A stretch of 64,000 nt of DNA from an uncultured Clostridia bacterium (GTDB lineage Bacteria > Bacillota > Clostridia > Oscillospirales > Ruminococcaceae). Every line of letters begins with the position of its first letter. The stretch's first letter is position 1. Positions 11,038 to 46,181 of this stretch are shown here, piece after piece. The notes beneath the pieces are model-generated. The model worked only from the letters and a program-made list of their open reading frames with translations. It searched no databases and was not told where the DNA came from. The DNA lies in contig CAMCFA010000006.1 in assembly GCA_945873955.1 (NCBI GenBank), positions 1,759 through 65,758 on the forward strand. The letters run 5' to 3'. Both the position numbers and the translations under genes were made by a program.

Positions 11038-11183
11038 AAATTGTAACTTGGCGTGCAGTTCTCTTTTCCTCTTTGCGCAGCAAAATTGCTTTTCGCTTCC
11101 TTTTGGCTTCCAAAAGGAAGCGAAAAGCATTTCCGCGCTTCGCGCGGAGTTCTAAGAGAAAACGCACCGAAAAATTACAATTT
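11038..11183. repeat. 146-bp imperfect palindrome (E2) containing a perfect 20-bp-stem hairpin
   Basis: Outer arms aaattgtaa (11038-11046) / ttacaattt (11175-11183). Perfect stem 11087-11106 / 11110-11129 (tgcttttcgcttccttttgg, loop ctt). Adjacent ccgcgc-ttc-gcgcgg hairpin at 11133-11147. Confidence 0.8.
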
Positions 11184-22878: not shown

Positions 22879-22970
22879 TGGCGGAGAAAGAGGGATTTGA
22901 ACCCTCGCGCCGGTTTGAGCCGACCTACTCCCTTAGCAGGGGAGCCCCTTCACCACTTGGGTATTTCTCC
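22879..22970 (-). tRNA. tRNA-Ser (anticodon GCT) with a long variable arm and encoded CCA
   Basis: Minus strand: GGAGAAA acceptor pairing with TTTCTCC, anticodon loop CTGCTAA, T arm GGGTTCAAATCCC, 3-prime GCCA. 92 nt. Confidence 0.9.
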
Positions 22971-32807: not shown

Positions 32808-35042
32808 TTAAATCAGACGTATCTGATCAATGTCCTGATCTGTTGCCGTTCCCGCGGAGGGAATGGTCTTTATCCGCAGCGCTTCGATGTCCTTCACGCC
32901 GCTGTTTTCCGCGAGGTAAGCCCCCGCAAGCTCCGCTTTGGTAAGGCGCATTACCTGAACGCCCTGCGTATCTCTCGTGGTCTTAGGCAGCACCAGCGCC
33001 GTATTGAAGGTCAGCGCCTTGCCCGCCGAGGATTTCAGCACGAAATCTGCCTCGCCCTTTATGACGAACATAGCCACCAGTTCCGACAGGTCGGAATACG
33101 CATTGCCCAGCTTCTTGCGCTTGGTCTTGGTTTCGTAGCTGGAAAGCGGCACCTTGGCGCACTTGCCGTTCTTGAAGAAGGACACAAGCGTTTCGCTGTA
33201 ATCCTCCGTCACCGCCATGAAAACTATGCTCTCGCCGTCGTCGAAGTCCAGCTTTGCGGGAACGTAATCTCCCATAACGCTCGCCTTTGTTTCGTCGAAG
33301 TCGGTGCAGCGGGACTTGTAAACCTGGTGCTTGTCGGTGAAGAACAGCAGCTCTGCGCCGCCGTTCACCTCGCCGCTCCAAACGATCTCGTCGTTCTCTT
33401 TCAGCTTGTGCTGATTGCTCATGCGCAGCGACTGCGGCGTGATTTTCTTGAAATAGCCCTCCCGCGTGAGGAAGATGTTCACATTGGACAGCTTGACCGG
33501 CTCTTCCACCTCCGCTGCCTGCTCCTCCACGTCGTAGAGGAACATTGTGCGCCGCGGCTGACCGTATTTCTTGGATATCTCTTTCAGCTCATCGATAATT
33601 AGCTTGTTCACCCGGGCTTCGCTGCCGAGGATCTCCTCCATGTCGGCGATATCCTTTTCAAGCTGGTCGGTCTCCTCGGTGCGTTTGAGGATATATTCCC
33701 GGTTGATGTGACGCAGCTTTATCTCGGCAACGTACTCCGCCTGCGGCTCGTCAATGCCGAAGCCGATCATGAGGTTCGGAACTACCTCCGCTTCCTCGTC
33801 GGTCTCGCGAATGAGCTTTATCGCGTAGTCGATATCCAGCAGGATCTTTTTCAGACCGTACAGCAGGTGCAGCTTTTCCTTTTTCTTCTGCATATCGTAG
33901 GAAACGCGCCGCCGCACGCAGTCCCGCCGGAAATTCGTCCACTCGTTCAGTATCTCGTACACGCCCATTACCCGCGGCGTGCCGTTTATCAGTATGTTGA
34001 AGTTACAGTTGAAGTTGTCCTGCAAGGGGGTCAGCCGGAACAGCTTGTTCATCACCGCATCGGGATCCTGACCCTTTTTCAGGTCGAACGCCAGCCGCAG
34101 ACCGGACAGGTCTGTTTCGTCACGGACGTCGGAAATCTCTCGCAGCTTGTTGTCCTTGACCAGCTCCACCACCTTGTCGATTATCGCTTCTACCGTGGTG
34201 GTGGGAGGGATCTGCGTTACCTCTATGCAGCGGGCGTCCGGGTCGTAATTGTACACCGCGCGGACTTTCACAGCGCCCATTCCGGTGCGGTAGATCTTCT
34301 CCATTTCGGCTTCGTCGTAGACGATATAGCCGCCGCCGGGGAAATCCGGGCCTTTCAGCGTGGAGAGCGCGTTGTGCTCCGGGTCTTTCATCAGCGCTAT
34401 CGTGGTTTCGCAGATCTCGCTCAGATTGAAGGAGCATATATTGCTCGCCATAGATACGGCAAGACCGAAGTTGCTGTTCACCAGCACCGACGGGAATCTC
34501 ACCGGGAACAGGCTCGGCTCCAGCATGGTGTTGTCGTAGTTCGGCACCATGTCCACCGCGTCCTTGTCGATCTCGGCGAAAAGCTCGGCGCTTATCGGCT
34601 CCAGCTTAGCCTCGGTGTAACGGGACGCGGCGTATGCCATATCCCGTGAATACGCCTTGCCGAAGTTGCCCTTGCTGTCAACATAGGGGTGCAGCAGCGC
34701 TTCGTTTCCTCTTGCAAGGCGAACCATAGTTTCGTATATCGCGGCGTCGCCGTGGGGATTCAGCCGCATTGTCTGACCGACGATATTTGCGGACTTGGTG
34801 CGTCCGCCGGTCAGCAGTCCCATTTTGTACATGGTGTAAAGCAGCTTGCGGTGCGACGGCTTGAAGCCGTCTATCTCCGGCAGCGCACGGCTGACGATAA
34901 CGCTCATGGCGTAGGGCATGTAGTTTTCTTCAAGGGTGCTTACGATGTCCTTCTGCGCGACTATTCCGCTGCCCTCGATATACGCCTCGCCCATTGCCGG
35001 GCTGAGCCTCTTTGGCTGCTTTTTTGGGGTGTTTTTCTTCAA
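32808..35042 (-). CDS. Type IIA topoisomerase subunit A (divergent ParC/GyrA-family paralog)
   Basis: 744 aa. [28 protein letters not shown], active-site [10 protein letters not shown]. Shorter than GyrA and I saw no GyrA-box. TTG start after AAGGAG. Confidence 0.85.
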
Positions 35043-35055
35043 AGGTGTTTACTCC

Positions 35056-35246
35056 TTATACTATTTTCATTTCTCCCTATAGACTTTGTCTATAGGGAGA
35101 AACCAACCGCTTTGCGGTTGGTGCGGCGTAGCCGCTGAAAAGCCGTTCAATACTAATATCGTCAAAACCTGTGGTTTTGACAGCCGCCGATTCGGCGGCA
35201 ACTTCTTATAGACTTTGTCTATAAGAAGATTTGATATTAGTATTAT
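35056..35246 (+). repeat. Multi-hairpin intergenic repeat family, copy B (191 nt), filling the spacer between the topoisomerase B and A genes
   Basis: Six local hairpins plus the long-range pair aatactaatatc / gatattagtatt. The 3-prime end abuts the B-subunit stop (35247-35249). The 5-prime end overlaps the last two bases of the A-subunit RBS. Confidence 0.9.
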
Positions 35247-37232
35247 TTATGAAATATCAGCTTCTGCAAGATACTTGCTGCCATTTTCCTTGATGAACCG
35301 CTTGCGTCCCTCCAAATTATTGCCCAGCAGCACGTCGAACATCTCTCTGGTGGCTTCCGCGTCGCCGGGATTCACCCGGATAAGCCGGCGGGTCTCCGGG
35401 TTCATGGTGGTAAGGCTCATCATGTCCGGGTCGTTCTCGCCAAGACCTTTGCTTCGCTGAATGGTGTACTTCGTTTCGCCTATCATGCCGAGAATTTTCG
35501 TTTTTTCCGGCTCGGTGTATGCGAAATAGGTGCGCTCTTTTGTGGTTATTTCATACAGCGGGGACTCCGCAATGTAAACGTAGCCCTTTTCAATAAGCGT
35601 GGGGCAAAGCTCCTGTATCATGGTGAGGATAAGCGTTCTGATCTGAAAGCCGTCCTCGTCCGCATCGGTGCAGATAACGATTTTATTCCACCGCAGATTG
35701 TCAAGATTAAACGTGGAAAGCTGCTTGTTCGCCTTGGTTTTTACCTCAACGCCGCAACCCAGCACCTTTATCAGATTCGTGATTATCTCGCTCTTGAATA
35801 TCTTATCGTAGCTTGCTTTAAGGCAGTTCAGTATCTTACCTCTTACCGGAATGACCGCTTGGAACTCAGCGTCCCGCGCCAGCTTTACCGAACCCAGCGC
35901 CGAGTCGCCCTCCACGATATAGACCTCGCGGCGGGAAACGTCCTTGCTGCGGCAGTCCACGAACTTATCTATGCGGTTGGTGAGGTCTATCGTCCCGGTG
36001 AGCTTCTGGAGCGTGCTCTGGCGAACCTTGTCCGCGTTCTCGCGGGAGCGCTTGTTTATCAGCACCTGCGCGCCTATCTTCGCGGCTTCGTCCGGGTTTT
36101 CAAGGAAGTAGACCTCCAACTGGTGCTTCAGCCACTCGGTCATGGCGTCGGTGATGAACTCGTTGGTAACGGCTTTCTTGGTCTGGTTCTCGTAGCTTGC
36201 CTGCGTGGAAAAGTTTGAGGAGATGAACACCAGACAGTCCTCGACGTCCTCCCACTTTATGCCTTTTTCATTCTTGTTGTACTTGCCGCCGTTTTTGAGA
36301 TACCCGTCTATCTGGGACAGGAACGCCTTTTGCAGAGCCTTCTGCGGGCTGCCGCCGTGCTCCAGCCAGCTTGAATTGTGGTAATGCTCGATGAACTGCA
36401 CTTCCTTGCTGAATGTGAACGCAACGTTCATCAGCAGCTTGTACTCGTCCTTGTCCTCGCGGTCGCGTCCCTGCCGCTCCGCCGACCAGCTCTGGGGCGT
36501 GGTCATGGACTTGTCGCCGACTACCTCCATAAGGTAATCGCTGATTCCGTTCTCATAGCAGAATATCTGCGAGGTGAAAGTGCCGTCGTCTTTCAGACAT
36601 TTCAGCACCAGCTCCACGCCGTCGTTGACTATCGCCTGCCTGCGCAGGATATCCGCGAGGTATTCTTCCCCGATGTCGATATCGGTGAATACCTCCAGAT
36701 CCGGCTTCCAGTGTATCTTAGTGCCGGTGCTGCCGTCGCCCTTGGTCTTTTTGAAGCCGCGCTCGTCCTGCGTGACGTTGAAGCCCTTTTCGAACCGCAG
36801 GGAGTAATTCCACGTCCCGCGGCGGCTCTCGACCTCCATATATTCGCTGGCGAACTGCGTCGCGCAGAGTCCCAGACCGTTAAGACCCAGCGCAAAGGAG
36901 TAGTTTCCGCCGGAGTTGTTGTTGTACTTGCTGCCCGCGTAAAGCGTGCAGAACGCCAGCTCCCAGTTGTATTTATCCTCCGCCTTGTTGAAGTCTATCG
37001 GGATACCCCGCCCGAAGTCCTCGACGGTTATGGACTTATCCTCATGCAGCGTGATGATTATTCGCTTGCCGTAGCCCTCACGCGCCTCGTCGATAGAGTT
37101 CGAGATTATCTCAAAAACCGAGTGGCGGCAGCCGTCCACACTATCAGAGCCGAAAATAACTCCGGGGCGCAGCCGTACTTGATCCGGGCCTTTCAGCGAC
37201 ACGAGGTCGTTGTAATTGTTTTCCTTTGCCAT
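35247..37232 (-). CDS. Type IIA topoisomerase subunit B (divergent ParE/GyrB-family paralog)
   Basis: 661 aa from ATG 37232 (RBS AGGAGAG). GHKL ATPase EIISNSIDEA, Toprim YIVEGDSA, PVRGKILN. The ORF-track N-terminal extension is rejected. Confidence 0.85.
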   Translation of the reverse strand: MAKENNYNDLVSLKGPDQVRLRPGVIFGSDSVDGCRHSVFEIISNSIDEAREGYGKRIIITLHEDKSITVEDFGRGIPIDFNKAEDKYNWELAFCTLYAGSKYNNNSGGNYSFALGLNGLGLCATQFASEYMEVESRRGTWNYSLRFEKGFNVTQDERGFKKTKGDGSTGTKIHWKPDLEVFTDIDIGEEYLADILRRQAIVNDGVELVLKCLKDDGTFTSQIFCYENGISDYLMEVVGDKSMTTPQSWSAERQGRDREDKDEYKLLMNVAFTFSKEVQFIEHYHNSSWLEHGGSPQKALQKAFLSQIDGYLKNGGKYNKNEKGIKWEDVEDCLVFISSNFSTQASYENQTKKAVTNEFITDAMTEWLKHQLEVYFLENPDEAAKIGAQVLINKRSRENADKVRQSTLQKLTGTIDLTNRIDKFVDCRSKDVSRREVYIVEGDSALGSVKLARDAEFQAVIPVRGKILNCLKASYDKIFKSEIITNLIKVLGCGVEVKTKANKQLSTFNLDNLRWNKIVICTDADEDGFQIRTLILTMIQELCPTLIEKGYVYIAESPLYEITTKERTYFAYTEPEKTKILGMIGETKYTIQRSKGLGENDPDMMSLTTMNPETRRLIRVNPGDAEATREMFDVLLGNNLEGRKRFIKENGSKYLAEADIS

Positions 37233-37566
37233 ATATCTCTCCTGTATTTTGTGCGGCGAATAAGCATATAACCGCATTATCTTCTTTAGTATACCACATT
37301 CTGATAAAAATTGCAAGGGATTTTTCCAGCGCAGCGCGAGGGATAACAACGTACATATCTCCTGCCTATTATATGTGCAGTATAAACAAAAAACAGCCCG
37401 GCGCACTTGATTCCCGCCGGTGTGTGATGTATACTGAAATATGTGCGGAAGCTACGTTTATCCGCCGCAAGATCGCGAAATGCTCAAATTATCAAGACAA
37501 AACGGAAATTTCCTGCTATAATACAAGTGTAAGCTTACAAAATGCACCACAAGGGGGGGGACAGCC

Positions 37567-38409
37567 GTGAATACAGATAAAGCAACTAGCGCCGAGAAGC
37601 TGAACATTCTCACCGCAGCGCTGGAATTCATTGAGAACAACCTCACATCAGAGCTGACGCAGGAGGACTGCGCCCGACACGCCTGCTGCTCGCTGTCGGG
37701 GCTGCAAAAGATGTTCCGGAACGTGTTCCACACCAGCGTCGGCGGGTACATCACCCGGCGGAGGGCAACTGCTGCGGCTCGGGAGCTTCAGCAGCGGGAA
37801 AGCTCGGTGCTGGACATTGCGCTGAAGTACGGCTGGGGCAGCGCCGAAGCGTTCACCCGCGCCTTTACCCGCGTCTGGGGCATGACTCCCACGGAATACC
37901 GCCGGAGCTGGCGGTTTTCCGGGCTGTGTCCCCGGCTGGATATCCCCCGGAAACTCATGCACAAAGGAGAGCTTATCATGACTAACAAATACGATATTTC
38001 CGAACTTTACGACTACATCAAATCCCAGCAGGGAACTTATCTGCTCAGCTTTGACATCGCGCATTTTGACATTGTGAACAAGACATACAGCCACGAAGCC
38101 GGAGACAAGTGCATACTGGAATGTCTGCACCGGATAGACCGGGAGTGCGCCGACGGAATGATGATGTTCCGCATAGGCGGCGATGAATTCGCAATGCTGA
38201 CCGGGCTTTCTGACAGAGCCGAAGCTGAGGCGCTGGCGCTGAAAATACTCTCCCACAACGGTGAAACTGTGGAGTTCAACGGCGCTGAAATACCCATAAG
38301 CATGCGCGCCGGAGCGGTGCTGCTGAAATCCGGCAGACTGAGTTACAGCGAGCTTTTCGCCGAGCTGGTGAGCGCGCCCTCCCCGGTAGCCGGCGAGGTA
38401 AGGTTCTGA
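37567..38409 (+). CDS. AraC-type HTH domain fused to a GGDEF diguanylate cyclase domain
   Basis: 280 aa. GTG start 6 nt after a G8 run. HTH (GYITRRRATAAARELQ..., YGWGSAEAFTRAFTRVWGMTP). Intact RIGGDEF. Confidence 0.85.
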   Translation: MNTDKATSAEKLNILTAALEFIENNLTSELTQEDCARHACCSLSGLQKMFRNVFHTSVGGYITRRRATAAARELQQRESSVLDIALKYGWGSAEAFTRAFTRVWGMTPTEYRRSWRFSGLCPRLDIPRKLMHKGELIMTNKYDISELYDYIKSQQGTYLLSFDIAHFDIVNKTYSHEAGDKCILECLHRIDRECADGMMMFRIGGDEFAMLTGLSDRAEAEALALKILSHNGETVEFNGAEIPISMRAGAVLLKSGRLSYSELFAELVSAPSPVAGEVRF

Positions 38410-38410
38410 C

Positions 38411-38446
38411 AAAAACAAGCCCCGGAGCGGTTTTAAGCTCCGGGGC
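38411..38446. terminator. Bidirectional hairpin terminator
   Basis: Stem gccccggagc / gctccggggc. The T-run is on the minus strand (TTGTTTTT). Confidence 0.65.
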
Positions 38447-38449
38447 AAT

Positions 38450-38609
38450 TTATACTATTTCCTAATCAACATATAGCCAAAGTCTATATGTTGATCCCAC
38501 CGCAAAGCGGTGGGCGCGGCGAAGCCGCAGGAAAGCCGTTCAATACTAATTCTGTCAAAACCAAAGGTTTTGACTAGCCGCCTTAAGGTGATTAAGAATT
38601 AGTATTATA
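38450..38609 (+). repeat. Multi-hairpin intergenic repeat family, copy C (160 nt, 30-nt internal deletion)
   Basis: Collinear with copies B and D, but lacks the 3-prime half of hairpin 5 and most of hairpin 6, retaining only the last 6 nt of its 3-prime arm (aaggtg). Confidence 0.9.
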
Positions 38610-38610
38610 A

Positions 38611-39081
38611 TCAATCCATATTCACAAGCGAGAAAAACAGGCTGACCGCCGAATACAGCGCAACGGAAACCACCAGTGTTGCAGCGGTCACCACAATAAT
38701 GACTGTCTTTCTGCTGCGCCGGGTGGTCTGAATGCAATATGTGATGAAGTAGTACAGCGCAGCCACCGCCGCGCTCCACAGAAGCGCCCCTGCCAGCGTG
38801 ATAAAAACGACACCTCCCGCCTGAAAGCACAGCTAATACAGCAGAAGCCCCACGATACCACCCGCCGCCAGAGCAAGCGCCGTCCGACCCTTGTCACAGA
38901 CGAACAGCCTCAGCAGCACTCCGGCTCCCGCTGGAATTAGGAACAGCGAAACCACCATTACCGCCGAACGCAGCCCTGCTCTGATGTCATGCGGCAGGGT
39001 AAAATTCAGCAGTGCCAGCAGAAACACGACCGCCGCCAGAATTCCCGCAGCAGCCCAGTCGGTTTTCTTTATCCTTGACAT
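38611..39081 (-). pseudogene. Small polytopic membrane protein interrupted by an in-frame TAG
   Basis: An 82-aa ORF (38833..39081) ends at TAG 38833-38835. The same frame stays open for 73 more hydrophobic codons to TGA 38611-38613, with no start codon of its own. Confidence 0.6.
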
Positions 39082-39098
39082 TTACACTCCTTTCCCGG

Positions 39099-39138
39099 AA
39101 ACGAAAACGGCGGCTATGCAGATCGCAGAACCGCCGTC
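39099..39138 (-). terminator. Intrinsic terminator after the GGDEF/EAL gene
   Basis: Minus strand: acggcgg...ccgccgt stem followed by TTTCGTTT. Confidence 0.55.
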
Positions 39139-39160
39139 CATACGGGAGCTTTCCCGCTTT

Positions 39161-40822
39161 TTATGTATTCACCGCCAGCAGCTTCCTGTCGAATTCTTCC
39201 TGCGTTACCGGCTTGGAGTAATAGAAGCCCTGCGCCGCGTCACAGCCGCAATGGCTAAGGAACTGTGCCTGCTCCTGCGTTTCAACGCCCTCGGCGATTA
39301 TGTCAAGACCGATATCCTGCGACATGGAAATGGTGTGGGAAATTATCTTCCTGCCGCGGCTGCTCTCCATGAATTCCGACAGGAACGCACGGTCTATTTT
39401 CAGCACGTCGAACTGGGTGGTTTTCAGCATATTCAGCGACGAATAGCCGGAGCCGAAGTCGTCCATCAGCATTGTGAAGCCCGCGGACTTCATGTTCTTA
39501 ACTACGTCAACAACGCCCTCTGCGTCCACCGATTCGGTTATTTCCAGTTCAAGGTATTTTATCGGGATATCGTACTTCTGTATCAGCTTAGTGAGCCAGC
39601 CTACCACGTCAAAGGTGCGCACATATTCGCGGGATATATTCACGGAAATCGGCACCGGCTGGATACCTCTGTCTATCCAGTCGCGGATCTTTTTGCAGGC
39701 GCTCTCCCAGATAAACTGGTCTAATTTCAGAATAAACCCGTTCTGCTCGAACACCGGGACAAACTCCGCCGGGGATATCATGCCCTTTTCCGGGTGTATC
39801 CACCTTGCAAGCGCCTCCGCGCCGATTATCCTGCCGGTGGAAATGCTGAACTTCGGCTGGAGGAACATCACGAACTGGTTGCCCAGCAGCGCGGACTTCA
39901 TGTCGTCCTCGATAGTCTGCTTCTTTTTCAGCTCGGTGCGCATTCTTCCGTTGAAGAAGCTGATATTGTTCAGCGCGTTGCCCTTTATCGACTGCCGCGC
40001 GATAGTTGCATTATCGCCGTGGCGGCGCGTGTGCAGCGTTCTGTCCTCTGCGATAGCAACGCCGAAGATGAGCCTGTACTCCATGCCCTTGAAGCCGGTA
40101 AGCATGCTTTCAAGTCTATGTATCAAATCCAGCAGCTCTTCATCGCTGGAATACGCCGTTACCATCATAAACACGTCCGCGGTAAGACGGCAGAACGGCT
40201 GATCCTCGTTGCATATCATCGACAGCGAGTCATTGATGAAGGCAAGCAGCTCGTCGCCCGCCTCCACGCCGTAATTCTCGTTTATCATCTTGAACCGCTC
40301 AATGTCGAACTGAATGAACGCTATCTCGTCGTCCGGGTGTCTAGCCATCATATCCCCGACTTCCTTGCCGAATATCTGCGGGTCTTTATCCGAAGAAAAT
40401 GTGGTCAGTATATTTCTGTCGAACATCTCTTTCTGGGAGTAGGGTCTGATCGTGCCGTGTACTGCGGTTATCCGATTGTTCTCGTCCCTTAGGAAATGCG
40501 CGTAAAAGCCGCCCATGGCGAAATCGCCGTCCGGGGTGAACTTAATTTTTAGCTCGACGCTCAGGCTGTTGCGGTCAATGCCGGAGAGTATGCCCTCCTC
40601 AAGCCGCGCGGTGAACACGCTGAACGCCGGAAGATACTGCTCGTCTATCAATCCGCTGTCCCGCAGGAAATCAAGAGGGTCGCCCTTGACATTCTCGAAA
40701 AGGCTGCTGCCGGCGGTCACCACTCTGCCCTCGGCACAGTCCCACAGGAAATGGAGGGTCCTCTTATCCCTGTCAAGAATTTTCACGAACAATTCCTTAT
40801 CCTTTTCTGTAATTTCAGACAT
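39161..40822 (-). CDS. c-di-GMP phosphodiesterase: N-terminal sensor-like region, degenerate GGDEF, intact EAL
   Basis: 553 aa. The GGDEF position reads LTADVF. EAL motifs EALARW, DDFGSGYSSL and EGVET are present. Confidence 0.85.
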   Translation of the reverse strand: MSEITEKDKELFVKILDRDKRTLHFLWDCAEGRVVTAGSSLFENVKGDPLDFLRDSGLIDEQYLPAFSVFTARLEEGILSGIDRNSLSVELKIKFTPDGDFAMGGFYAHFLRDENNRITAVHGTIRPYSQKEMFDRNILTTFSSDKDPQIFGKEVGDMMARHPDDEIAFIQFDIERFKMINENYGVEAGDELLAFINDSLSMICNEDQPFCRLTADVFMMVTAYSSDEELLDLIHRLESMLTGFKGMEYRLIFGVAIAEDRTLHTRRHGDNATIARQSIKGNALNNISFFNGRMRTELKKKQTIEDDMKSALLGNQFVMFLQPKFSISTGRIIGAEALARWIHPEKGMISPAEFVPVFEQNGFILKLDQFIWESACKKIRDWIDRGIQPVPISVNISREYVRTFDVVGWLTKLIQKYDIPIKYLELEITESVDAEGVVDVVKNMKSAGFTMLMDDFGSGYSSLNMLKTTQFDVLKIDRAFLSEFMESSRGRKIISHTISMSQDIGLDIIAEGVETQEQAQFLSHCGCDAAQGFYYSKPVTQEEFDRKLLAVNT

Positions 40823-45779: not shown

Positions 45780-45810
45780 ATACTCACAACATTCACACGG
45801 AGGTAATAAC

Positions 45811-45915
45811 ATGAACAGAACAACCAAAAGGATCATCACCGAACTCATGAAAATGGCAGGGTCAGTCGCGCTGATAATACTCTGGTCGGCGGAGCTTACG
45901 CGTATTCTGGGGTGA
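45811..45915 (+). CDS. Candidate 34-aa small hydrophobic protein
   Basis: MNRTTKRIITELMKMAGSVALIILWSAELTRILG. GGAGGT RBS 7 nt upstream of the ATG and its own promoter. Below the ORF-track length cutoff. Confidence 0.4.
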   Translation: MNRTTKRIITELMKMAGSVALIILWSAELTRILG

Positions 45916-45950: not shown

Positions 45951-45979
45951 TTGACAAACCGCGAAAAATATATTAAAAT
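45951..45979 (+). promoter_or_regulatory. Sigma-A promoter firing into repeat copy D and dapL
   Basis: TTGACA, 17 nt, TAAAAT. Predicted TSS ~45986-45988, 3-5 nt before the repeat 5-prime boundary. Confidence 0.65.
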
Positions 45980-45990
45980 ATATGTTGGAT

Positions 45991-46181
45991 TTATACTATT
46001 TCCTTATCAACTTATAGACAAAGTCTATAGGTTGAACCAACCGCCAAGGCGGTTGGAGCGACTAAGCCGCAGGAAAGCCGTTCAATACTGATTCTGTCAA
46101 AACCCCTGGTTTTGACTTGCCGCCTTTAGGCGGCTCACCTTATAGACTTCGTCTATAAGGTGATTAAGAATTAGTATTATA
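45991..46181 (+). repeat. Multi-hairpin intergenic repeat family, copy D (191 nt), forming the predicted dapL 5-prime leader
   Basis: Full-length copy collinear with B. Ends 31 nt before the dapL ATG. Confidence 0.9.

Follow-up and report, generated by a model that had tools for sequence, protein, structure and literature searches.

The window, by which we mean the whole 64,000-nt stretch of DNA analysed here, contains four collinear copies (A to D) of one repeat, all in the same orientation and all located where the preliminary description had placed them; their limits were refined by the TTA...TTA boundaries. A scan of the window with a covariance model, filters off, matched copies B, C and D only. 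The features of the locus were as follows.

1-36, + strand: copy A, truncated by the window edge to its 3′ end, which aligns to the 3′ ends of copies B, C and D; it holds the terminal TAGTA and TTA, the 3′ arm of closing helix 2 and the right part of hairpin 6
32808-35042, - strand: host gene for type IIA topoisomerase subunit A (GyrA/ParC-like), from the ORF list and homologues
35056-35245, + strand: copy B, full length (TTA, 184-nt body, TTA)
35064-35141, + strand: copy B domain 1, from RNAfold, the inverted-repeat scan and covariation of helices 1-4
35064-35069 with 35136-35141, + strand: copy B closing helix 1
35070-35102, + strand: copy B hairpin 1, with TATAGAC core
35102-35122, + strand: copy B hairpin 2
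35123-35135, + strand: copy B hairpin 3
35149-35244, + strand: copy B domain 2, from RNAfold, motif counts, the inverted-repeat scan and covariation of helices 5-9
35149-35160 (AATACTAATATC) with 35233-35244 (GATATTAGTATT), + strand: copy B closing helix 2
35161-35181, + strand: copy B hairpin 4
35183-35199, + strand: copy B hairpin 5
35202-35228, + strand: copy B hairpin 6, with TATAGAC core
35247-37406, - strand: host gene for type IIA topoisomerase subunit B (GyrB/ParE-like), from the ORF list and the Pfam annotation of orthologues
38450-38607, + strand: copy C, shortened by an internal deletion of 31 nt in which the whole of hairpin 6 is lost together with the 3′ arm of hairpin 5
45951-45979, + strand: host dapL promoter-like site TTGACA-17-TAAAAT, outside the element, from the promoter scan (11/12 matches)
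45991-46179, + strand: copy D, full length, in sense to dapL, whose promoter and ribosome-binding site it separates
45999-46004 with 46071-46076, and 46084-46095 with 46167-46178, + strand: copy D closing helices
46007-46035, 46037-46056 and 46058-46070, + strand: copy D hairpins 1-3
46096-46116, 46119-46134 and 46135-46163, + strand: copy D hairpins 4-6

Copy B occupies the 17-nt spacer between the minus-strand genes for topoisomerase subunits B and A. The stop codon of subunit B lies 1 nt from the copy, and the GGAG ribosome-binding site of subunit A abuts its flanking TTA. Because the operon is on the minus strand, copy B is antisense to it. Copy C directly follows a terminator hairpin, with convergent genes on either side, and sits at a synteny breakpoint. 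The dapL promoter-like site is immediately upstream of copy D and is kept in relatives without the element; if this predicted site is used, copy D would be transcribed within the 5′ leader of dapL. Copies B and D are very probably inside host transcripts and may exert an RNA-level effect on their neighbouring genes. The promoter scan detected no promoter or terminator belonging to the element itself. The 184-nt body has no Pfam-recognisable gene or coding capacity; a 34-35-aa ORF called in relatives sits upstream of the insertion site, not in the element. In agreement with the earlier statement that the window holds no transposase, a Pfam scan of 30 of its ORFs, together with the synteny comparison, detected no transposase or recombinase domain. 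Homologues of DapL and of the topoisomerase place the window in an uncultured Oscillospiraceae/Ruminococcaceae bacterium.

Fold and covariation of the element

Folding with RNAfold gave two domains, each with three hairpins in a multiloop and each closed by a helix. The predicted energy was -99 kcal/mol for copy B (z = -15 against shuffles) and -91 kcal/mol for copy D (z = -12), and the reverse strand of both copies folded equally well. The hairpin layout and every compensatory change listed in the preliminary description were present in the sequence. The motif GTCAAAACC-N3-GGTTTTGAC occurred three times in the window against 0.00 expected, and TATAGAC-N3-GTCTATA five times against 0.13 expected.

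Eight helices covary, namely the six hairpins and the two long-range closing helices. With 31 copies aligned by MAFFT, 98.6% of cells were paired and double changes occurred in 29 of 64 pairs, compared with 12.6±1.9 after shuffling (0/500) and 6-13 in controls with slid partners. With 47 copies in a model-fitted alignment, to which hairpin 5 was added, 98.3% of cells were paired, and double changes occurred in 37 of 70 pairs, compared with 21.1±1.9 shuffled (0/500) and 11-19 slid. The model-fitted alignment leans towards structure, and the MAFFT alignment yields the same answer. Both alignments thus support the earlier proposal that the stems, including a long-range helix, are kept by paired substitutions. 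Closing helix 1 takes forms that include TTTCCT/AGGAAA, TTCTTC/GAAGAA, TTTCTC/GAGAAA and TTTCCC/GGGAAA, and closing helix 2 forms that include ..AATTCC/GGAATT.., ..AATATT/AATATT.., ..AATCTC/GAGATT.. and AATACGAAT/ATTCGTATT. Hairpin 4 seems invariant because it served as the search query; in a sample gathered independently of it, it also covaries (GTCAAAGCC/GGCTTTGAC, GTCAAAATC/GATTTTGAC).

The invariant blocks are both termini, the linker GCCGTWC-AATACTAAT, the cores of hairpins 3, 4 and 5, and the TATAGAC-N3-GTCTATA sequence that tips hairpins 1 and 6. In the stems between these blocks the sequence is free and complementarity is kept. The ends carry terminal inverted repeats, 5′ TACTAWTTCC and 3′ GGAAWTAGTA, with a conserved part of ~9-10 nt, and the terminal motif TACTAWT/AWTAGTA is present three times, at both ends and in one internal copy. 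Hairpin tips with TATAGAC-N3-GTCTATA lie ~20 nt from either end, on basal stems that covary freely.

Distribution, empty sites and decay of the family

We scanned GTDB genomes with the hairpin-4 palindrome as the query and obtained at least 113 loci, and the same element was present in 49 of the 113 loci listed. Among the matches listed, nearly all came from gut MAGs assigned to Oscillospiraceae, Acutalibacteraceae, Ruminococcus, Ruminiclostridium and Clostridia. A further ~20 copies, new subfamilies among them, came from a scan of metagenomes that used the 5′ end and hairpin 1 as anchors. The family thereby grew by about 65 further copies in gut MAGs and metagenomes (Oscillospiraceae, Acutalibacteraceae and relatives). 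All copies are intergenic and solitary rather than clustered, and one MAG (CAZINI01) carries at least 14 near-identical copies.

The comparison with Rfam and the wider genome search proposed in the preliminary description thus recovered many relatives and no Rfam match. In a search of the window and 12 loci against Rfam 15 at gathering and E-value thresholds, no model matched the element, and the sole sub-threshold match was to a CRISPR-DR model (E=2.8). There was likewise no match in plasmid and phage collections searched by blastn or in the viral contigs scanned, and a full-text literature search (MITEs of these taxa; motif strings) returned no description of the family. These results bear out the view that the repeat family was undescribed. 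Very probably it is a family of mobile DNA and not an RNA gene, as set out below.

No gene recurred beside the copies when the 1833 ORFs of the 113 loci listed were clustered all against all and compared with Pfam; the families that did recur there were common housekeeping ones (ABC transporters, two-component proteins, MatE, AraC). Among the fetched loci, no autonomous copy was found in the form of isolated element ends 0.5-3 kb apart. Two inverted copies in one locus (L027) enclose genes for RuvX, DUF1292, TauE and others, with no transposase between them. The check for Y1/HUH genes that had been suggested earlier detected none beside the copies in the loci examined or among the window ORFs scanned. 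No transposase, recombinase or autonomous partner was present in the window and ~1 Mb of fetched loci.

Evidence of mobility came from a comparison of occupied and empty sites, a check that the preliminary description had put forward and that yielded exact and near-exact empty sites for copies B and D. In a conspecific strain (L174), whose subunit A protein is identical and whose DNA identity is 99%, the site of copy B is exactly empty: it reads ...TCA TAA A TAA GGAGTAAACACCT TTG, with 17 nt between the genes for subunits B and A. The filled site, in the window and in L171 and L173, reads ...TCA TAA A TAA[184-nt body]TAA GGAGTAAACACCT TTG. The two sequences therefore define an insertion of 187 nt, with one TTA (on the element strand) before insertion and two after it. 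The same site is also empty in relatives L133-L136, and in relatives at 96% and 93% identity the spacer there measures 21 and 47 nt. The site of copy D is empty in syntenic relatives L122-L132 (DapL 96.8% identical) and in L114 and L118, and reads TGGAC-TTA-TTCC in relatives versus TGGAT-TTA[body]TTA-TATC in the window. Relatives that are empty at the B and D sites are 93-97% identical at the protein level. Conversely, L133 has its own full copy at a position where the window site is empty. The preliminary description had not recognised the copies as recent mobile-element insertions.

Deletion derivatives are common; some have lost domain 1, others retain only hairpin 4 in domain 2, and there are ~65-nt mini-forms in which hairpins 1 and 6 are fused. 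In a relative, a remnant of ~70 nt (L130:3027-3095) follows a similar terminator, carries a deletion unlike that of copy C, and coincides with a break in synteny. As judged from these sequences, single copies are not maintained by the host; they appear to decay by internal deletion, with single mismatches placed at random. The fold would thus be retained only in the lineage that keeps transposing. The four repeats of the window are copies of one recently active, non-coding, mobile, dispersed DNA family.

Level of the fold and mode of insertion

One reading, which takes up the plus-strand form (RNA or ssDNA) of the preliminary description, is a structured non-coding or cis-regulatory RNA read from the plus strand, with its fold under RNA selection. 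The folds are indeed predicted to be very stable and the covariation is extensive, a strong promoter-like site precedes copy D, which is probably part of the dapL leader, and the analogous bcr1 repeat is reportedly transcribed (PMC3184786). An RNA fold would, however, be expected to show G·U pairs far more often than A·C pairs, and no such excess was seen. Of the 3223 paired cells in 47 copies, 97.6% were Watson-Crick; G·T accounted for 24 (0.74%) and A·C for 19 (0.59%; binomial p=0.54). Since G·T is about as rare as A·C, there are almost no wobble pairs (0.7% of cells) and no strand asymmetry, and the plus-strand single-stranded form that had been deduced from the G-T wobbles of copy D was not upheld across the 47 copies. 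Nor did the shared orientation of the window copies prove general. At 46 loci, orientation was 25:21 relative to the gene-strand majority and 26:20 relative to GC skew (8-kb local proxies, which are noisy), and copies between tandem genes comprised 6 in sense and 11 in antisense; on this census we also rejected strand-specific insertion as the cause of the four same-orientation copies. The loops point the same way. Within one MAG, copies that are otherwise nearly identical differ by loop triplets that have turned into their exact reverse complement (AAG/CTT in hairpin 1, TCT/AGA in hairpin 6, GCC/GGC in hairpin 4), and such reverse-complement pairs recur throughout the family. This flip-flop is the expected product of inversion via a DNA palindrome and not of point mutation under RNA selection. 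Further evidence against an RNA gene is that the minus strand folds as well, that copy B is antisense to its operon, that the element is without a promoter or terminator of its own, that copies are polymorphic between strains and decay by deletion, and that no Rfam family matches. We therefore regard an RNA-level origin of the fold as very improbable, and infer from these sequence patterns that the hairpins exist and matter as DNA and not as a strand-specific RNA mark. A bridge RNA or omega-RNA was considered separately and rejected: the flanks show no conservation past the TTA, large internal loops are lacking, and the Rfam HEARO family gave no match.

The junctions constrain how the element inserts. 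In element orientation the flanking triplets were TTA...TTA in 47 of the 49 copies with both ends intact, TGA...TGA in one copy (L048) and CTA...TTA in another; TAA...TAA was found in none of the 49. Coincidence would produce TGA...TGA with a chance of ~1% (a rough figure, from the observed rate of single-end change), and since such a double change is unlikely, the two flanking triplets appear to be related. A guide sequence behind the TGA...TGA copy was rejected, as no differential change was seen beside hairpin 1 when L048 was compared with its close relatives L023 and L030. Preferences in the flanks are non-palindromic (Y at -1; T and never G at +1). Beyond ~9 nt the 5′ end contains no mirror of the 3′ end, which covaries with an internal motif (L152, copy B). 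The TTA pair fits equally well with a true 3-bp duplication, an exchange over a TTA core or an element-borne TTA.

Two known types of reaction were weighed against these facts. One would make the element an ordinary MITE derived from a DDE insertion sequence, with a symmetric transposase acting on the terminal inverted repeats, a 3-bp staggered cut at TTA, a true target duplication, and hairpins that are passengers kept by palindrome-templated correction. This is the commonest origin of bacterial MITEs (PMC3184786, PMC10969869), and it would account for the terminal inverted repeats, for the rise from one TTA in the empty site to two in the filled site, and for the lack of replication-strand bias; the TGA...TGA of L048 would arise naturally if an off-consensus target had been duplicated. 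A symmetric DDE reaction with a 3-bp stagger thus explains the duplication and the TGA pair, but not the 49:0 polarity, because at the non-palindromic TTA it predicts TAA...TAA in about half of the copies. The non-palindromic flank preferences, ends that mirror each other for only ~9 nt, and a parent IS that was not found in the window and ~1 Mb of loci also argue against this origin, which we consider possible but somewhat doubtful. The other type would make the element an IS200/IS605-type or REP-like single-stranded DNA substrate of a Y1 HUH enzyme (TnpA, RAYT) that reads the two subterminal hairpins and cleaves 3′ of TTA, both at the left flank and at the right end, without duplication. The resemblance to IS200/IS605 or REP/RAYT substrates seen in the preliminary description holds only in part, for the subterminal hairpins and the fixed target polarity: identical hairpin tips lie ~20 nt from each end, the short left-end target has a fixed polarity, the empty site holds a single TTA, and the loop flips and DNA-type complementarity suggest that hairpins truly form in single-stranded DNA. 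Such a reaction accounts for the hairpins and for the polarity, but leaves unexplained the terminal inverted repeats and the TGA pair, which would need two coincident events; perfect palindromes, moreover, cannot mark a top strand. IS200/IS605 elements insert preferentially into the lagging-strand template, whereas no replication-strand bias was seen here, within the noise of the local proxies. With no Y1 gene near any copy examined, and a unit of 190 nt with six hairpins that is unlike the 20-40-nt REP with its GTAG or CGTC head, we judge a Y1 HUH substrate to be rather unlikely.

An exchange over a shared core would explain all of the junction facts while assigning no known role to the hairpins. 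The passages on IS607 in PMC6188088 describe a precedent, in which an invariant GG core is present at both junctions and strands are exchanged without duplication. We lean slightly towards a core-shared exchange, or another end-asymmetric reaction, over a symmetric staggered-cut DDE reaction.

Taken as a whole, we consider it highly probable that the repeats are a non-autonomous mobile DNA element with a 184-nt non-coding body, moved by an enzyme encoded elsewhere. The stems would pair as DNA, either within a folded single strand or as cruciforms, while the DNA is being replicated or transposed, and the mobilising enzyme would recognise the conserved hairpin tips and termini. The fold could be kept up by selection on master copies or by palindrome arms that correct each other through template switching, and the fixed TTA polarity together with the TGA...TGA copy would fit an exchange of strands at a short core that element and target have in common. 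As neither a transposase nor a recombinase was found, we commit only to a trans-mobilised DNA element whose termini and tips would be its recognition features. A bolder reading, which we hold to be improbable although worth stating, is a new transposition system, in which an enzyme reads TATAGAC-tipped DNA hairpins and recombines into TTA with fixed polarity. It would act by exchange over a 3-nt core or by strand-specific cleavage, with the six-hairpin, two-domain DNA fold as its substrate. If true, it would represent a structured-DNA transposon outside the DDE, IS200/IS605 and IS607 patterns as now defined.

Comparison with known elements and significance

The family is MITE-like in kind, and its closest described analogue, judged by function and description, is bcr1 of the Bacillus cereus group. 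bcr1 is an interspersed intergenic repeat of Firmicutes of ~155 bp, strain-variable, flanked by short direct repeats and with no known transposase (Delihas 2011, PMC3184786); its cruciform-like multi-stem fold is kept by compensatory changes, and stability is lost in some copies (PMC3184786). The likeness is a functional one, in that both are mobile, protein-less and keep a multi-stem fold by compensatory changes; the two were compared by their descriptions, and no sequence relationship is evident. The direct repeats of bcr1 are 5 bp long and its two stem-loops are independent, whereas the element described here combines polar TTA triplets and a threefold terminal motif with six hairpins, arranged as two closed domains of three. 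The structure of bcr1 has been read at the RNA level, while pair statistics and loop flips indicate DNA here.

As in classical MITEs, the element is short (<~300 bp), non-coding, multi-copy and intergenic, carries terminal inverted repeats, has matched triplets where MITEs have short flanking direct repeats, and shows insertion polymorphism between related genomes (the B, D and L133 sites). MITEs such as Correia/NEMIS, ERIC, RUP and QMITE are often co-transcribed with their neighbours and have stable predicted folds (PMC3184786, PMC10969869). Classical MITEs mostly form one long hairpin from long terminal inverted repeats; here the repeats are ~10 nt long and are accompanied by six palindromes and two closing helices. 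Unlike in classical MITEs, the polarity of the flanking triplets is fixed, and the window and ~1 Mb of loci contained no parent IS.

With IS200/IS605 ends and PATEs the element shares subterminal hairpins at both ends, a polar left junction and a plausible structure-dependent recognition. It differs from them in its terminal inverted repeats, its matched triplets (TGA...TGA included), palindromes that are perfect rather than imperfect, and the absence of strand bias by local proxies. REP and BIME sequences, according to passages in PMC3733652, are 20-40-nt imperfect palindromes with a GTAG/CGTC head, often in alternating clusters; our element is a 190-nt unit with six hairpins and no such head, and its copies are solitary. 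An invariant short sequence shared by junction and target, with otherwise minimal target specificity, recalls the passages on IS607, where that sequence is GG and here it is TTA. In those passages IS607 has no terminal inverted repeats and encodes TnpA with or without TnpB, whereas here the repeats are present and no serine recombinase was found. The same passages describe no hairpin architecture, and the likeness is one of junction appearance that does not imply membership. The element lacks defining features of IS200/IS605 derivatives and of REP/RAYT units, and it matched no Rfam family. Related repeat families of the same genomes might share modules with it, for example the GTCAAAACC hairpin.

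What makes the architecture unusual is the combination of a polar TTA junction and loop flip-flop with eight covarying helices that contain almost no wobble pairs. These features make the element a natural case in which structural constraint at the DNA level can be cleanly separated from constraint at the RNA level, and a caution that strong covariation by itself is not enough to call an RNA gene. Mobile elements of uncultured gut Oscillospiraceae are apparently little catalogued, as the full-text search found nothing on this family. The family is active at the strain level, with insertions in the 17-nt spacer of an essential topoisomerase operon and in the dapL leader, and such strain-level insertions make it usable as a strain marker. 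Because copy C sits at a synteny breakpoint, the family is also likely to bring about rearrangements and breaks between the contigs of MAGs. The enzyme that moves it, if found, could prove to be a hairpin-dependent recombinase.

Family copies interrupted by other sequences at loci outside the window

At locus L144 (1462-1630), another MITE is nested in a copy of the main family: a different element of about 165 nt, with GAGCNTGTTCACATAAA as its terminal inverted repeats, splits the copy inside closing helix 2, part of its second domain. At another locus, L087 (1028-1232), an unrelated stretch of about 190 nt separated the 3′ end of the copy from hairpin 6. This stretch, starting with TACTAAGG and ending with CCCTAGTA-TTA, contained a GATGCAAGCAAGA motif that was also found just upstream of dapL in the relatives L119 and L120. 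The stretch may belong to a third family of repeats whose termini are likewise TACTA...TAGTA.

A second repeat family with a shared hairpin

The same gut taxa also carried a second repeat family, unrelated to the main element, in which the hairpin GTCAAAACC-N3-GGTTTTGAC was identical to that of the main element. Among the matches listed from the hairpin-4 palindrome scan, it occurred at the following loci:
L012, L085, L099, L067 (two copies), and at least about 40 others: second repeat family

In this family the hairpin was flanked by GGCTCCCTTGTGTAAAGGGAGCT and TGAGGGATTGT, and neighbouring units, sometimes forming inverted pairs, contained other GTCA...TGAC hairpins, an arrangement that looks REP/BIME-like. 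The family had no match in Rfam and was not present in the 64-kb window.

Additional features of the window

Three further features were identified in the window:
11084-11132, intergenic stretch: near-perfect 49-nt hairpin
22882-22970, minus strand: 89-nt tRNA, matched by Rfam
45810-45915, plus strand: conserved small ORF of 34-35 aa, MNRTTKRIITELMKMAGSVALIILWSAELTRILG-like, upstream of the dapL promoter

The hairpin, unrelated to the main family, has 23-nt arms (AATTGCTTTTCGCTTCCTTTTGG/CCAAAAGGAAGCGAAAAGCATTT) that are 96% complementary and a 3-nt loop; it may serve as a bidirectional terminator. The tRNA was the sole Rfam match in the window, and its length is enough for an extended variable arm. 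The small ORF is closely preceded by a GGAGG ribosome-binding site, has a TTGAC...TAGAAT promoter-like sequence recognized only by eye, and was also marked by gene callers in relatives (L122: 2786-2893).

Gene order around copies B and C

Copy B interrupts a pair of topoisomerase genes (32808-37406) that may encode ParE/ParC rather than GyrB/GyrA, given that NCBI names a 96% identical homologue "topoisomerase IV". Copy C is accompanied by one extra region:
38620-39081, minus strand: extra ORF region beside copy C

Synteny with the closest relatives ended exactly at copy C (window 38409-39166 versus L130:2982-3098). In the related locus L130, proS lies upstream of a remnant copy of the main element, whereas the window carries an AraC-GGDEF gene and the topoisomerase operon in that place. 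These differences suggest that a rearrangement occurred at a repeat copy.
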